Shown here: in pieces, positions 1 to 4,254 of the stretch
Layout: each line of letters starts with the position of its first letter
How positions within the stretch are numbered: position 1 is the stretch's first letter
IMG/VR virus record: IMGVR_UViG_3300045988_002477
DNA from: a virus
DNA length: 6,035 bases
Reading direction: 5' to 3' (one strand)
The notes under the pieces: model-generated
The model's database searches: none
Seen by the model: only the letters and a program-made list of their open reading frames with translations
Told to the model about the DNA's origin: nothing
Made by a program: the position numbers and the translations under genes

Positions 1-119
1 AGTTCGCCTTCGTTGATGGTCGTCAAGAGCTGGTGACTTCGGTCAAATTTGCTTCGTGGTCGTTGCATTCGCGGTACTTGTGCGAAATGGTTTTCACTGT
101 TTCGGTTCGTTTTCCTTCA
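1..119. repeat. Left copy of the exact 119-nt terminal redundancy (circular-assembly overlap). It contains a duplicate of the VP1 start (ATG at 68, minus strand) and the last codons of the 143-aa ORF.
   Basis: A base-by-base comparison shows 1-119 (agttcgccttcgttgatgg...ttcgttttccttca) is identical to 5917-6035. Confidence 0.97.
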
Positions 120-525
120 CCTCTTCCTTCACCTCTTCCTTCTCCTCTTTCTGTTTCGGCTGTTCTGTCTGCTGTCCCTTTTTCAGTTGCTCCAGCGCTT
201 TGGCTGCTGCTTCTGCTTTTTCGTGCATCGTCACGATGTCCTTCGGCAGATTTTCGAGGTCTGTTCCCTCGGTGTATGCTACGCTTTTCGCCTTGATACT
301 CGTGTCTCCCGCTTCCAGTCGTGCGATTGCGCTTGCAAGGTCGTAGCCTTCTCCGGCTCGCTGGATTTTTTCGTATGTGTTCTCTTCCGGCTGCTCGATG
401 TATTCGGTAGTGCCATTCGGTCGCTTGACTGCTTTCCACGTTGGCGCGGTCTTGCTGCCCGGATTGTTTTTTACTCTTTCGGTCGGCAGTCCGTAGTATC
501 TTACCAGTGTATTAGGATTTAACAT
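94..525 (-). CDS. 143-aa protein with an acidic/lysine-rich C-terminal tail; putative internal scaffolding (VP3-like) protein
   Basis: ATG at 525 is preceded by GAAGGAGA with 6-nt spacing. The stop lies 25 nt upstream of the VP1 ATG across the junction, and the ORF overlaps the upstream gene by 14 nt. The central segment YTEGTDLENLPKDIVTMHEKAEAAAKAL loosely resembles the aromatic-x-D-x-T...LP...A...F pattern I recall in gokushovirus VP3. The functional call rests on size, position and composition only. Confidence 0.7.
   Translation of the reverse strand: MLNPNTLVRYYGLPTERVKNNPGSKTAPTWKAVKRPNGTTEYIEQPEENTYEKIQRAGEGYDLASAIARLEAGDTSIKAKSVAYTEGTDLENLPKDIVTMHEKAEAAAKALEQLKKGQQTEQPKQKEEKEEVKEEVKENEPKQ
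114..149. repeat. Three tandem copies of a 12-nt unit (ccttcacctctt x2, ccttctcctctt), encoding the (K/V)-containing EE repeat KEEKEEVKEEVKE at the C-terminus of the 143-aa protein
   Basis: Direct reading gives 114-125 = 126-137, and 138-149 differs at one base. On the coding strand the tract is purine-rich (AAGAGGTGAAGG). Confidence 0.9.
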
Positions 526-766
526 TGGCCGTCTCCTTCAGGTCGATGAGCCGTGCGATGTGTTCGGGCGCCGCTTCGCTCATGTAGCCGGTTTCGGTGT
601 CGAACTCGCCAAGCTCAACCAGACTGATATCTTCGATTTCACTCGGCTTGCTTTCGTTGGCTTTCCATCGTGCCGTTCGGATTGCCTGTGCTCGGTTGTT
701 CTGCAGAAACGGCTGAGAGTAGCCGTTGGTCAGTGCATCGTGGAATGAGTAGAATTTCAGTTTCAT
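512..766 (-). CDS. 84-aa conserved small microvirus non-structural protein (VP5/ORF5-like, the proposed analogue of phiX174 protein C)
   Basis: ATG at 766 is preceded by AAGGAG with 7-nt spacing, and the SD overlaps the stop of the upstream 34-aa ORF. The pattern F.D......QPF...N...A.R ... D..L.E.GE.D..TG matches my recollection of a small protein family common in gokushovirus genomes. The function is not verifiable here. Confidence 0.75.
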   Translation of the reverse strand: MKLKFYSFHDALTNGYSQPFLQNNRAQAIRTARWKANESKPSEIEDISLVELGEFDTETGYMSEAAPEHIARLIDLKETANVKS

Positions 767-1032: not shown

Positions 1033-1425
1033 TTATACCCCCTTTCTGTATTTGTTAATGCGCGTATCAAAATGCACCCAACTGCTTTCTACGATGATTC
1101 CGCAGGAATCGCTTGGTACTATTTTGTTTAGCGTTTTTGCAATTTCTTTTGGTGTCATGTCTTTTACTATGATGTCTACAGCGCATCCCCTCATGTGGTA
1201 GCTGTACTTTGCACCGTTGACTTTTTTGTTGTGTTCTGGCGTCCGGTATCCGCTTGTTATGATTATCGGTTTATCAATTGTCTTTCGCAGAATTTCCAGT
1301 AGGCCTACCAGATAGTTATCCACGAATACTATTGGACTGCCGTCTTTGCAGGCAAACTCTTTTACCTTGAAGTGTTTTGTTATTTCTATGTTTCCTTGTT
1401 CTGGTACGACGTATGATTTAATCAT
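1033..1425 (-). CDS. Peptidase M15 family (M15A / Peptidase_M15_3-like, zinc D-Ala-D-Ala carboxypeptidase fold) peptidoglycan hydrolase; putative endolysin
   Basis: ATG at 1425 is preceded by AAGGAG with 6-nt spacing. The family motifs are present: FKVKEFACKDG near the N-terminus, SGYRTPEHN, the zinc ligands H77 and D84 in SYHMRGCAVD, and H118 in WVHFD. No N-terminal signal peptide or TM segment is visible. Confidence 0.88.
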   Translation of the reverse strand: MIKSYVVPEQGNIEITKHFKVKEFACKDGSPIVFVDNYLVGLLEILRKTIDKPIIITSGYRTPEHNKKVNGAKYSYHMRGCAVDIIVKDMTPKEIAKTLNKIVPSDSCGIIVESSWVHFDTRINKYRKGV

Positions 1426-1870: not shown

Positions 1871-2860
1871 TCAAACTTTCGGTTCACGCCACTTTTGCCT
1901 TAACTTGTCTTTTTCTTTCTGAATGTTGAGGTATGTTTCATAATCCACGCTGGTGCTTTGTTCGAGGTTGATTAAACTTTGTACTGCGCTCCGTCTGCGT
2001 CTGGCTCTAACCTCTCTCAGCTCGTCAGAATGTGCCTTAAAATAGCTTTCAGTGTCTTGGTTGGTATCTTTATCGATGATTTTGTCAAAATAGCGTGGTG
2101 GCCTTTTCTCGCGGCCTCCTGCACAGATGATGCTGTCTGTTTTTAAGATTTCATCTTTGTGCTCGTTCAGATACTTTTCTCCGATGCCTTTTGACATGAT
2201 TCTGAACTCTGGCTCTCTGCCCTGCATCCAGTATTTTACGCTTTCTTCTGCACCAATTGCTTTTTTGTTCACGTATTGTGCTACGTATGCATAGCTGCCT
2301 GGTTGTGCTGGTGAAAAGTCAATCATGCCTTTCCCCCAGATTTTTTCTAGCCATTCGCTTTTAAAATAGCTGTTGCCCTTTTGGTTCTTATACCATTGAG
2401 CATCCGGTGGCTTTAGCCCGAAAATAATCGCATGGTAGTGCGGCCTTTTTGTTCTGTCCCCATATTCAGCAGCTAGGAAATATTTTATTGGTTTCTTGTA
2501 TGCTTTTCGTAGACGTTTTAAAAATAGCTGCACGTCTCGCTTGCTTACTGTCTGACTTTGAATGCTTCTGTAGCCTTTGAGGATTTCTCCGTATGGAATA
2601 TGCTCATCGTCATACGTTAGTGTCAGAAAGATTACATCTTCCCATTCTTTTGCTTCTAGCTCAATTCTGGTTGCCCATTGGTCAGCCATTTGTTTTCGGC
2701 AATACTCGCATTTACCGCATGGTAATAGCGCGAATTTTCCTTTTTTGACACCGTCCATGATGTCCGTTTGCAGCCCTTGCTTTGATAGGTTTTCCAGACT
2801 TCCCCATAACTGTGGTTTTTTCGTGTCCATCTGAAATACTAATGGTTTTGTACATGGCAT
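1871..2860 (-). CDS. Rolling-circle replication initiation protein (Microviridae VP4 / phiX174 protein A analogue, HUH endonuclease)
   Basis: The 329-aa protein has an N-terminal MPCTKPL and the LPCGKCEYCR cysteine cluster typical of gokushovirus VP4. RCR motif I is FLTLTY (78-83), motif II is PHYHAIIFG (140-148), and motif III is the tyrosine pair in YAYVAQYVNKK (190-200). Confidence 0.95.
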   Translation of the reverse strand: MPCTKPLVFQMDTKKPQLWGSLENLSKQGLQTDIMDGVKKGKFALLPCGKCEYCRKQMADQWATRIELEAKEWEDVIFLTLTYDDEHIPYGEILKGYRSIQSQTVSKRDVQLFLKRLRKAYKKPIKYFLAAEYGDRTKRPHYHAIIFGLKPPDAQWYKNQKGNSYFKSEWLEKIWGKGMIDFSPAQPGSYAYVAQYVNKKAIGAEESVKYWMQGREPEFRIMSKGIGEKYLNEHKDEILKTDSIICAGGREKRPPRYFDKIIDKDTNQDTESYFKAHSDELREVRARRRRSAVQSLINLEQSTSVDYETYLNIQKEKDKLRQKWREPKV

Positions 2861-2867
2861 TTTGTTC

Positions 2868-2900
2868 CCGGCACAAGCTTCCTTGTCTATCTTGTGCCGG
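2868..2900 (-). promoter_or_regulatory. Perfect 10-bp inverted repeat (CCGGCACAAG / CTTGTGCCGG) with a 13-nt loop, ending 7 nt upstream of the rep ATG
   Basis: 2868-2877 is the exact reverse complement of 2891-2900. On the mRNA strand the loop AUAGACAAGGAAG holds the only SD-like sequence, about 17 nt from the AUG. A TATAAT (2923->2918, minus strand) lies just upstream. Confidence 0.7.
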
Positions 2901-2934
2901 TTGACACCTCGCTTTCTATTATATTAACTTGTTG

Positions 2935-2952
2935 TAGTAGTAGTAGTAGTAG
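2935..2952. repeat. (TAG)6 trinucleotide microsatellite, (CTA)6 on the coding strand
   Basis: Direct reading shows tagtagtagtagtagtag immediately abutting the first TGTTGAA repeat. It occupies the position where a -35 element for the TATAAT at 2918-2923 would lie. Confidence 0.95.
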
Positions 2953-3119
2953 TGTTGAAACTGTTGAAAACTCGTTTTTTTAACGTTGCTATGTTTATTT
3001 ATTGCTTTTTTGCCTGTTGAAAATTTTGTTGAAAACTTGTTGAATTGTTGAAAGTTCGTCATTATGACGGATTTTGTTGTGCACTTTTGTGTTGAAAACC
3101 TGTTGAAAGTGTTGAAAAC
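2953..3119 (+). repeat. Iteron-like array of nine same-orientation copies of TGTTGAA(A)(A)(C) in three clusters
   Basis: The copies are at 2953-2961 TGTTGAAAC, 2962-2971 TGTTGAAAAC, 3015-3024 TGTTGAAAAT, 3027-3036 TGTTGAAAAC, 3038-3045 TGTTGAAT, 3046-3054 TGTTGAAAG, 3090-3099 TGTTGAAAAC, 3101-3109 TGTTGAAAG and 3110-3119 TGTTGAAAAC. A degenerate TGTTGTG lies at 3075-3081. Spacing within a cluster is 8-12 nt, about one helical turn. Confidence 0.9.
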
Positions 3120-3133
3120 TTAAGTTTTCCACA
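3114..3133. promoter_or_regulatory. 16-nt perfect palindrome GAAAACTTAAGTTTTC (3114-3129) overlapping a DnaA-box match TTTTCCACA (3125-3133)
   Basis: The palindrome was read directly and is formed by the last iteron plus an inverted half-copy. TTTTCCACA fits the relaxed DnaA-box consensus TT(A/T)TNCACA at 9/9 positions. Confidence 0.6.
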
Positions 3134-3191
3134 TAGGATGCTCCTGACATAAATGTCGTGAGCATCTGACCACAGTATATATTTTGAGCTA

Positions 3192-3226
3192 GCACGCGCG
3201 CGCGCGCTTCGCGTGCGTGCGTGCAC
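3192..3226. repeat. Alternating purine-pyrimidine tract: GCAC(GC)6 - TTC - (GCGT)3GCAC; an imperfect palindrome with Z-DNA potential
   Basis: There are two 16-nt perfectly alternating R-Y runs (3192-3207 and 3211-3226). On the displayed strand they fold into 13 pairs, including three G-T wobbles, with a 3-nt loop. On the complementary strand those wobbles become A-C mismatches. Confidence 0.8.
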
Positions 3227-3259
3227 TTTGCCTTATATGCTGTTTGCACTTTAGCCACA

Positions 3260-3294
3260 GCGACAGTCCCCCCGCGTAGGGGGGGCGTTGTCGC
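3260..3294. repeat. Hairpin A: GCGACAG-T-CCCCCC / loop GCGTA / GGGGGG(G)-C-(GT bulge)-TGTCGC
   Basis: C6 (3268-3273) pairs with G6-7 (3279-3285), and 3260-3266 pairs with 3286 plus 3289-3294 around a 2-nt bulge. The left arm 3259-3268 can alternatively pair with 3359-3368 (GACTGTCGCT) as a perfect 10-bp long-range helix. Confidence 0.75.
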
Positions 3295-3340
3295 AAGGGG
3301 GGGACGAAAAACAGCGGCAATGTTTTTCGTCCCCCCTTGC
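3293..3340. repeat. Hairpin B: 16-bp perfect stem (GGGGGGACGAAAAACA / TGTTTTTCGTCCCCCC) with the 7-nt loop GCGGCAA; extendable to 20 bp with one bulged G
   Basis: 3298-3313 is the exact reverse complement of 3321-3336. With G3297 bulged, 3293-3296 also pairs with 3337-3340. Confidence 0.9.
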
Positions 3341-3417
3341 TTTATATGATTATGTTTTGACTGTCGCTTGTCTGGTGCCCCTGTGTTGGGGAACCTTAGC
3401 TTTGCGCGGAGGGGTTT

Positions 3418-4254
3418 TTAATTTCCTCTGTATGCGTTGAATGCGTCCATGTTTGGCATGATTGGCACTCTTTGGTTGTATTTTTTGAAGTTTCCTGCTG
3501 TTTCTTTGGTTGCTTTTTTGGCTTTTTCACCCGCTTTTGCAAGTCCTGAGCCTAACTTGTTAGCTGCATAGCTGTATTGTTGTACCTGTTTTGCGCTTGA
3601 GCTTGCTAGCTCGCTTGCTGACTGTTCCCAGGTTTTTGCAGCCTTATATTGTTTTGCGCTGGTACTCTGCTTTGCTAGCTGTAAGTATTTGTCCGCTAGT
3701 TCTGCCGTGTTGTTGCCGTATTCGTACATTGCCGATACACTTGCTGCTTGTGCGCTCTGTTGGTTATAACTTTGGCTTCCGATGTTTGCAGATGCTCCGC
3801 TTGTTGAGCTTGTCGCTCCGTTGGTTGCCGCTAGAATAGGGTTGATGCCAGCTGCAATCATGTCTTTTACAGTATCTTGATAGGCTGTTCCCCGCATTTC
3901 TTTTTGGAAAGCTCTTTCAGCTGCTGCTTCTGCGCTGTTGTATTTCTTGGCGCTTGCTTGGCTTCCTGCGTTTGCGAGGTTGCTTAATAGTCCGCTCATC
4001 ATTTGCAGTGCGTTTGCGGTGTTTACGCTGTTTTGATTTCCGAACATTGTGACGCCTGTTGGTGTACTAATTTGCGTTGCACCAATCTGCTGCGGTGCCG
4101 TTAAGCTTCCGGTTGTGCTCTCGCTACCTGTGCTGGTCTCGTTGCCTGATCCTTGGCTGTTTTTGGCGCTGCTCTGGTTGCTGCTTGTTGCGATGTTGGT
4201 TAACATGCCTAGTCCTTGCATGATGTACGGTAGTAACTGTAACAATGTCTCCAT
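3418..4254 (-). CDS. DNA pilot / minor capsid protein (Microviridae VP2, phiX174 protein H analogue)
   Basis: The 278-aa protein has S/T/Q/N/A-rich low-complexity flanks around the conserved core YNSAEAAAERAFQKEMRGTAYQDTVKDMIAAGINPILA, which is characteristic of microvirus VP2. It lies directly downstream of VP1. Confidence 0.9.
   Translation of the reverse strand: METLLQLLPYIMQGLGMLTNIATSSNQSSAKNSQGSGNETSTGSESTTGSLTAPQQIGATQISTPTGVTMFGNQNSVNTANALQMMSGLLSNLANAGSQASAKKYNSAEAAAERAFQKEMRGTAYQDTVKDMIAAGINPILAATNGATSSTSGASANIGSQSYNQQSAQAASVSAMYEYGNNTAELADKYLQLAKQSTSAKQYKAAKTWEQSASELASSSAKQVQQYSYAANKLGSGLAKAGEKAKKATKETAGNFKKYNQRVPIMPNMDAFNAYRGN

Follow-up and report, generated by a model that had tools for sequence, protein, structure and literature searches.

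A gokushovirus cassette of DnaA boxes and DnaA-trios that probably copies the unwinding module of Firmicute origins

We analysed a complete gokushovirus genome (IMG/VR record IMGVR_UViG_3300045988_002477; the whole 6,035-nt stretch is referred to as the window) in which every gene lies on the minus strand. An earlier note on this DNA had singled out a palindrome with a DnaA box at 3114-3133 and proposed that it folds into a hairpin for DnaA-dependent priming of the complementary strand. We found that the palindrome is probably (we put the probability at roughly 0.7) the distal end of a cassette of ~215 bp which copies the DnaA-dependent unwinding module of Firmicute origins, and which would be used through host DnaA on the replicative form. 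On this reading the array is the element and the hairpin is incidental. Palindrome and cassette are both located in the 557-nt non-coding region between VP2 and VP4 (2861-3417). Judged by the order and type of its parts, 2917-3133 is a compact copy or mimic of the unwinding module of a host chromosome origin (oriC).

Parts and conservation of the cassette

The cassette is made up of the following parts:

2917-2934, plus strand: AT-rich stretch and phage-specific motif, TATTATATTAACTTGTTG; unwinding side of the cassette
2927-2937: phage-specific motif ACTTGTTGTAG, at the boundary of AT-rich DNA and trios
2935-2952, plus strand: six tandem TAG, putative DnaA-trios (3'-GAT-5'); the complement, (CTA)6, is a repeated 5'-TnnT-3', as in the DnaD recognition element
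2953-2970, plus strand: trio-proximal box pair, TGTTGAAAC and TGTTGAAAA; the second reads TTTTCAACA on the other strand
2971-3014: AT-rich spacer between box clusters A and B, conserved in relatives; host origins have ~40 nt there
3015-3054, plus strand: box cluster B, with TGTTGAAAA, TGTTGAAAA, TGTTGAAT (degenerate) and TGTTGAAAG
3057-3069: small palindrome CGTCATTATGACG between clusters B and C
3090-3118, plus strand: box cluster C, with TGTTGAAAA, TGTTGAAAG and TGTTGAAAA; the last box is the left arm of the large palindrome
3114-3129: perfect 16-nt palindrome GAAAACTTAAGTTTTC, at the junction of two abutting 12-nt extended boxes, TGTTGAAAACTT and AAGTTTTCCACA
3125-3133, plus strand: DnaA box TTTTCCACA, inverted and of consensus type; as the distal box it is separated from the trio-proximal boxes by ~155-170 bp

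The motif TGTKGAAA was found ten times in the window, against 0.42 copies expected. Nine of these copies fall within the 181 nt of 2953-3133, eight direct and one inverted, in agreement with the earlier statement that the region holds a single opposite-orientation box. It was also correct that TTTTCCACA matches TTWTNCACA at nine of nine positions, and this is the sole exact match in the window. However, 80 of 200 shuffled sequences contained at least one such match, so the box alone is not significant; its significance comes from its context, the clustering of TGTKGAAA. On the unwinding side, the AT-rich TATTATATTAA occupies 2917-2927 and is followed by CTTGTTG, a conserved motif that is not of host type.

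Relatives were collected by means of cassette DNA motifs. The resulting set of 184 genomes comprised 10 GenBank records, 110 IMG/VR contigs found with the motif ACTTGTTGTAGNAGTAGTAG, 63 further contigs retrieved with an unrelated pattern in box cluster B, and the window; the cluster B pattern GTTGAAAACTTGTTGAAWTGTTGAA retrieved at least 120 microvirus contigs. Ten non-microvirus contigs from the first IMG/VR pattern were dropped as chance matches (Thr/Ser-rich coding repeats with no box arrays). A separate sample of 56 relatives was selected by VP4 protein. We refer to the clade of the window, with the cassette upstream of VP4, as group A and to the other clade as group B; L numbers denote individual contigs and loci. 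Every one of the 184 motif-retrieved genomes carried one cassette, which was also present in nearly all of the VP4-selected relatives, and L324, L327 and L334 had a normal cassette on inspection.

A distant BLAST search with the intergenic region showed that 2917-3117 is conserved in at least 34 gut, pig, mink and monkey gokushoviruses with otherwise little DNA similarity. Conservation of the cassette stops exactly after the last GTTGAAAAC, and lineages differ beyond it. The usual layout in relatives is AT-rich DNA, TTG(TAG)5-6, in most cases a GC-containing 4-bp spacer, and a first box that is most often TGTGGAAAA; the modal distance from trios to box is 4 bp, and it is 0 in the window. At least five uninterrupted NAG trios were present in 125 of 179 relatives. 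The motif ACTTGTTGTAG was kept in 10 of 10 relatives found by BLAST and in 59 of the 63 genomes retrieved by the unrelated pattern. When all of IMG/VR was searched with TAGTAGTAG-N4-TGTGGAWAA, 111 matches were obtained; among the 80 matches listed, 67 were contigs of 4-6 kb, the size of the microvirus group, and many were cassette-bearing loci that had already been collected. A distant BLAST search of PLSDB plasmids with the cassette gave no match, and so no evidence of a plasmid source. Sequences resembling cgtcaNNNtgac(g) lie between clusters B and C in relatives of both groups (L001 ~2714-2726, L007 ~1311-1323). The small palindrome CGTCATTATGACG was not seen at the corresponding place in host origins and may serve some other factor as a binding site.

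Two other kinds of element were considered for this region and rejected. No Rfam family was found in the whole window at E<=1 and the direct repeats are unable to form RNA helices, which speaks against a structured RNA. A scan for sigma-70 promoters and terminators detected no promoter on the gene strand inside the cassette, and the one weak plus-strand site (TTGAAA-16-TAGGAT, 3112-3139) amounts to one found against 0.7 expected.

Comparison with host chromosome origins

We scanned 185,579 bacterial genomes for GTKGAAAACYTGTTGAA, using only loci with arrays. Most of the 120 matches were chance singletons, and dense arrays were found in metagenome-assembled genomes (MAGs) of Oscillospiraceae and Ruminococcus. 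In L143, L152, L227 and L157 the arrays sit between dnaA and dnaN (DnaA and DnaN were identified by Pfam), the interval which is the classical position of oriC in Firmicutes. The box type in these dnaA-dnaN origins is TGTTGAAAA or TGTGGAAAA. The order of parts is AT-rich DNA, (TAG)4-5, GGGC or GGGGT, TGTTGAAAC-TGTTGAAAAC, and then clusters in both orientations, with (TAG)4-5 at the equivalent place in L143, L152, L227, L147 and L157. In L143 and L157 the trios are followed by the pair GTTGAAACTGTTGAAAAC, as in the proximal pair of the window, while L152 and L227 have further box clusters just upstream of dnaA.

Box logos from 80 host and 1107 phage sites were alike (T.89/.90; T/G.81/.19 vs.86/.14), and both had TGTTGAAAAC as their most frequent decamer. 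With an nhmmer profile built from 121 phage cassettes, the match to the host origins extended from the trios through the last cluster (E values of 4e-17 to 2e-13). Inverted boxes AAGTTTTCAACA and the extended form AAGTTTTC(A/C)ACA are likewise found in host origins, as are head-to-head box pairs similar to that of the window, e.g. GTTGAAAACTCGAGTTTTAAAC in L152. Because logos, top decamer and profile alignment all match the dnaA-dnaN origins, the identification of the repeats (the 'iterons' of the earlier note) as host-type DnaA boxes is strongly supported, given their position and architecture in host MAGs. The DnaA connection drawn in that note therefore stands, and is broader than was claimed: all of the repeats appear to be DnaA boxes, joined to trios and an AT-rich element.

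We compared the cassette with the basal unwinding system (BUS) of bacterial origins, which consists of DnaA boxes, a GC spacer of ~4 bp and trios on a 5' tail (PMC8287927); in Firmicutes it is located in incC, between dnaA and dnaN, together with an AT-rich element and a DnaD recognition element (PMC6669920, PMC10201434). The published rules ask for a DnaA box with at most two mismatches to TTATCCACA or to a species-specific motif, 0-16 bp from the trios, and for at least three tandem NAN trinucleotides with the consensus 3'-GAT-5' (PMC8287927). In the window, TTTTCAACA at 2962-2970 (minus strand) has two mismatches to TTATCCACA, starts 9 bp from the last trio and is exactly the host box type; six TAG are found at 2935-2952. 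With polarity taken from the '5'-tail' wording (PMC8287927) and from the host origins themselves, the trios lie 5' on the TGTGGATAA-like strand, as they do in L143, L152, L227, L147 and L157. Shared with the BUS are the order and polarity (a short AT-rich stretch, (TAG)n, a 0-4 bp spacer, TGTKGAAAA boxes), the 5-6 trios, proximal and distal box subregions with distal boxes in either orientation, and the box variant and logo.

There are also differences. The cassette lies in a 6-kb single-stranded DNA (ssDNA) phage and is compact, at ~215 bp, whereas the four host intergenic regions measure 344-833 bp. The inverted box found in hosts between clusters A and B is missing from it, and it is mobile and invertible within the phage genome. 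On its unwinding side it carries the phage-specific ACTTGTTG; ACTTGTTGTAG is absent from host origins, where nhmmer alignments begin at model position 35, at the start of the trios. Since it is located between VP2 and VP4 of a microvirus and not beside dnaA/dnaN, we class it as a mimic or captured copy and not as a chromosome origin.

The origin match points to a Firmicute host of the Oscillospiraceae/Ruminococcus type. In three relatives (L007 1545-1600, L009 1605-1665, L010 3895-3960) we observed canonical TTGACA-17-TATAAT or extended -10 promoters along with strong ribosome-binding sites of the GGAGG type; in combination with the origin match, these fit a Firmicute host. Arrays with this type of box were also seen in L172 (Mesoaciditoga), L239 (Athalassotoga) and L182 and L138 (Anaerolineae), with nhmmer E values of 1e-13 to 1e-9 and, in some, TAG repeats.

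The terminal palindrome and the mobility of the cassette

The sequence of 3114-3133 is GAAAACTTAAGTTTTCCACA. The perfect 16-nt palindrome reported at 3114-3129 was confirmed and is the only one of its kind in the window. Perfect 16-nt palindromes arose in 5.2% of first-order Markov shuffles of the whole window and in 0.7% of those of the intergenic region. Its arms reach 12 nt with one mismatch (TGTTGAAAACTT / AAGTTTTCCACA, 3110-3133), the right arm being an inverted copy of the repeat with one change, so the description of a last iteron fused to an inverted copy was accurate.

The inverted unit AAGTTTTCCACA stands head-to-head after a direct box in ~56 of 184 genomes, that is in ~78% of group A vs ~10% of the others, and in at least 43 of the 56 VP4-selected relatives. 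It occurs in group A, in L006, in L008 and in group B genomes of the L010/L083/L252 type. It is absent from ~128 of the 184 cassette-bearing genomes (~70%), including 10 of the 30 group A genomes of the first set; one of these is L004, in which the last direct box leads directly into the stop codon of VP2. Where present, AAGTTTTCCACA is nearly invariant. The perfect centre, CTTAAG, is limited to the window and the near-identical contig L121; 37 relatives read GAAAACTCAAGTTTTC, with the centre CTCAAG, one base (T vs C) from the palindrome of the window. The gap of 6-7 nt between the two 9-mers is variable (CTCAAG in 37 genomes, CTTAAG in 2, also CTAAAG, GCATGAG and GCATAAG). As it varies in both sequence and length, there is no sign of a selected stem: what relatives keep is the box and its placement.

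This pattern bears on whether the inverted copy has any function. It could have arisen at the edge of the array by local duplication and inversion, as a neutral event, with the perfect palindrome a chance single-base state; the restriction of the palindrome to two genomes, the single base that separates it from 37 relatives, the ~70% of cassettes that do without the inverted box and the 5% of shuffled windows with a 16-nt palindrome would all fit. We nevertheless consider this improbable, as AAGTTTTCCACA is nearly invariant, always of the consensus-like GTGGAA variant and always 6-7 bp from the direct box. The inverted box is moreover found in several separate lineages, and host origins show similar head-to-head pairs (GTTGAAAACTCGAGTTTTAAAC in L152).

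Two further non-coding elements flank the cassette:

2868-2909, minus strand: strand-locked element that ends 7 nt before the VP4 start codon (ATG) and reads, on the sense strand, GGTGTCAA with a 10-bp covarying hairpin (10-11 bp when its equivalents in relatives are included; loop ATAGACAAGGAAG); referred to as the GTGTCA-hairpin
3134-3417, minus strand: GC-rich multi-hairpin module, the strongest ssDNA structure in the genome

The cassette was in the sense orientation in 124 genomes and antisense in 59; it lies upstream of VP4 in the clade of the window and downstream in most others. L332 (IMGVR_UViG_3300045988_015275), with a VP4 94% identical to that of the window, has no cassette between VP2 and VP4. 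Its cassette was found at 1600-1812, ~30 nt after the VP4 stop codon, flipped relative to 2917-3133 of the window and with the flanks of the other clade. The cassette, here both relocated and flipped, therefore moves as a unit by recombination. L005 and L007 have the appearance of an in-place inversion. The possibility that the packaged strand flips with the cassette was rejected, as base skews at four-fold sites were the same in all orientation classes, though codon usage could mask a signal. In all clades the AT skew of the sense strand is +0.47 to +0.56 at four-fold sites of VP1 and +0.33 to +0.37 genome-wide. The sense strand is thus strongly A-rich and T-poor, similar to phiMH2K (+0.29) and opposite to the T-rich viral strand of phiX174.

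The GTGTCA-hairpin behaves differently from the cassette. This GGTGTCA-hairpin element was sense in 178 of 183 genomes and antisense in 2, and compensatory stem changes were found in L003 and L004. Equivalents lie at L003 1-50, L004 2485-2530 and L007 1020-1062; the loop is ATAGACAAGGAAG in the clade of the window and TATCAAGTAA in others, and in the other clade the element is placed just after the VP4 stop codon. The complement of the loop, ACTTGATA, resembles the phiX174/pC194 nick core CTTG|ATA, and the element is a candidate plus-strand origin or terminator. A search for CTTGATA or TATCAAG hairpins in phiMH2K and SpV4, aimed at the strand that the element marks, gave nothing convincing. 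The cassette motif ACTTGTTGTAG shares ACTTG with the complement of this loop. An ssDNA signal tied to one strand would be expected to follow the pattern of this hairpin. As the cassette flips and moves while the GTGTCA-hairpin is strand-locked, the cassette most likely acts on the double-stranded replicative form.

The module at 3134-3417 folds at -68.4 kcal/mol (z -6.98), and none of 200 shuffles folded equally well. It contains a hairpin at 3137-3166, an alternating GC hairpin (3192-3224) and C6/G6-7 hairpins (3259-3340). In L003 and L004 the homologous modules are found at the opposite end of the cassette, and group B has such modules too, so the non-coding modules are shuffled. By its predicted fold, this module is the best candidate for ssDNA-specific functions such as a complementary-strand origin or terminators.

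These observations argue against the priming role proposed in the earlier note, in which the hairpin stem would rebuild a duplex DnaA box on the ssDNA circle and DnaA would seed helicase and primase loading. The fold that it called for is indeed predicted: a hairpin forms on both strands, with six A/T-rich bp, a mismatch at box position 6 and three further bp, and the whole of the perfect relaxed-consensus box lies in the stem. A palindrome would fold on whichever strand is packaged, the inverted box is frequent in group A and among the VP4-selected relatives, and the link of the region to DnaA is now strong. However, the fold is weak (-4.3 kcal/mol on the plus strand and -5.0 on the minus strand; z -1.4 and -2.6), and in a 76-nt context the frequency of the minimum free energy (MFE) structure is only ~0.02, as other boxes compete for pairing with the right arm. 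Among relatives, most cassettes lack the inverted box, only two genomes have the perfect palindrome, and the gap that would close the stem varies. The inverted box occurs most often in genomes whose packaged (sense) strand would hold (CTA)n instead of the trios, from which it lies ~170 nt away. In addition, the inferred Firmicute host would load its helicase via DnaD, as in the B. subtilis paradigm (PMC10201434), and not by the E. coli-type DnaC of an ABC primosome. Much stronger ssDNA structures adjoin at 3134-3417, and the cassette occurs in both orientations and in two positions relative to genes while the GTGTCA-hairpin keeps its strand. We therefore regard hairpin priming as very improbable. 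We read the palindrome as two head-to-head DnaA boxes and its hairpin potential as a by-product.

We also compared the palindrome with known priming sites. In the A-site of the ABC primosome, a DnaA box in an ssDNA hairpin stem reportedly assembles DnaA, DnaB and DnaC (Masai and Arai). The window shares with it a consensus DnaA box, possibly in a hairpin stem, in a single-stranded replicon; it differs in that the stem is weak and mismatched, is not conserved in cassette bearers and is not strand-locked. In B. subtilis the helicase is loaded also through DnaB and DnaI, and the probable host of the window would have a loader of this DnaD/DnaB/DnaI type. Among complementary-strand origins, phiX174 has a PriA assembly site and G4 has hairpins recognised by DnaG. 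The need to convert ssDNA to the replicative form is the same here and the window does have a strongly folded module at 3134-3417, but its palindrome is not such a structure.

The strand behaviour also bears on the notion of classical iterons bound by Rep (VP4), with the palindrome as the Rep binding or nicking hairpin of a plus-strand origin. The repeats do flank the conserved phage-specific ACTTGTTGTAG, whose ACTTG resembles the phiX174/pC194 nick-site core CTTG|ATA, and the cassette usually adjoins VP4. Yet the repeat is unchanged across VP4 proteins only 33-40% identical (and constant over the range of 33-100%), and it is the same in host chromosomal origins without phage genes. A plus-strand origin should moreover be strand-locked, whereas the cassette flips while the strand bias and the GTGTCA-hairpin do not. 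We give this explanation hardly any weight.

The remaining annotation of the window is as follows:

94-525, minus strand: scaffold, weak sub-threshold match (Chlamy_scaf, 21.9 bits vs a 25-bit cut-off)
512-766, minus strand: ORF5 (ORF5 domain)
1033-1425, minus strand: M15 peptidase
1871-2860, minus strand: VP4 Rep (REP_ORF2-G2P)
3418-4254, minus strand: VP2-like protein, 278 aa
4293-5984, minus strand: VP1 capsid (Phage_F, E 3e-147)

The closest records are human-gut gokushoviruses (KX513876, 85% identity over 81% of the query). An open reading frame of 87 aa with a GTG start (2995-3258, minus strand) crosses the box array and the GC hairpins. Without a Pfam match, and overlapping the conserved non-coding cassette, it can almost certainly be dismissed as a gene.

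Proposed function and meaning for gokushovirus biology

In the mechanism that we favour, host DnaA-ATP would fill the boxes on the double-stranded replicative form and, by analogy with bacterial origins, would polymerise from the proximal boxes onto the TAG trios. The AT-rich/ACTTGTTG side would then open, giving access to host helicase-loading proteins and possibly to the phage Rep VP4. The motif ACTTGTTGTAG may be a recognition site for VP4 at the place where DnaA would melt the duplex, coupling opening by DnaA to VP4. The DnaD recognition element is the complement of the trios, a repeated 5'-TnnT-3' (PMC10201434), and the complementary (CTA)n of the cassette could offer such an element. With boxes, trios and this DnaD-element-like complement, every known cis signal for helicase loading in Firmicutes appears to be present in the cassette. 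In incC of B. subtilis the trio-proximal boxes are fixed in orientation, and a distal box subregion is also required, which works in either orientation, at 132-462 bp, apparently by looping (PMC6669920). By the same analogy, the inverted TTTTCCACA would be a distal double-stranded anchor box of higher affinity. The likely pay-off would be a replicative form that is amplified through DnaA or carried in the manner of a plasmid, with titration of DnaA as a side effect.

Titration could also be the whole function. Many replicative forms with ~10 boxes each might act as a DnaA sink that blocks initiation in the host, or box occupancy might regulate promoters such as that of VP4, with no real unwinding. 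High box density speaks for this, as does a function independent of orientation and position, which is how the cassette behaves; in group A it immediately precedes VP4, and in group B the next promoter. A precedent is datA, a cluster of DnaA boxes outside oriC that titrates DnaA. The cassette resembles it as a box cluster able to sequester DnaA, but datA has no DnaA-trios or unwinding element and the cassette keeps both. For a sink or sensor boxes alone would suffice, yet the trios, the 4-bp spacer, the fixed orientation of the proximal boxes and the AT-rich DNA are all conserved, as they would be in a functional unwinding module, and on the gene strand the cassette showed no promoter of the sigma-70 kind. 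We consider a pure sink or sensor unlikely.

For the origin-like reading, there are precedents among extrachromosomal replicons that carry host DnaA boxes, namely oriC plasmids (minichromosomes) and the origins of P1 (oriR), pSC101, F and RK2. The cassette shares with these the use of host DnaA boxes to exploit the host initiator. It differs from P1 oriR, pSC101, F and RK2, which join a few DnaA boxes with iterons for their own Rep; here the whole array and the trios are of host type, and the phage's own initiator is a rolling-circle HUH nuclease.

Several points weigh against an origin copy acting through host DnaA. Microviruses already possess a Rep-driven rolling-circle system, which leaves the need for a DnaA-driven origin unexplained. 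The AT-rich stretch is short (~13 nt), TTTTCAACA deviates from the E. coli consensus at position 6, and the affinity of host DnaA for it is assumed. A pure mimic of a host origin does not account for the conserved phage-specific ACTTGTTG beside the trios. The inverted box, given its absence from ~70% of cassette-bearing genomes, cannot be essential to the cassette. Finally, the identity of the hosts is deduced from the origin match, and the TGTTGAAAA box type, present in contigs of Thermotogota and Anaerolineae too, may be wider than Oscillospiraceae.

More tentatively, and with the odds somewhat against it, a large and abundant group of gut gokushoviruses may have captured the host DnaA-box/trio module to load the replisome for theta- or plasmid-like replication or persistence. 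Such a module would name Gram-positive hosts, and the head-to-head pair of the window could let DnaA engage folded ssDNA. Persistence without integration has been seen for an E. coli gokushovirus (PMC7062461).

In the literature searched on DnaA with Microviridae, gokushovirus or phage, no account of microviral DnaA boxes or trios came up, and a phage-borne oriC mimic appears to be undescribed. In the gut of humans and animals, gokushoviruses belong to the commonest phages, yet little has been learnt about their hosts and replication signals. Up to 2022, the record of microviruses of Gram-positive bacteria was limited to binned sequences and two prophage types (PMC9239249). The cassette would allow hundreds of genomes to be assigned by sequence to Oscillospiraceae/Ruminococcus hosts. 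It corrects the picture of iterons plus a DnaA-box hairpin, and it would provide a natural, compact and portable DnaA-box/trio module for testing models of origin unwinding in anaerobes that are hard to study. It also suggests that DnaA, the master initiator, is commandeered by an ssDNA phage, which bears on amplification or on persistence without integration. If true, this would be a DnaA-dependent mode of replication in a family thought to rely solely on rolling-circle Rep.

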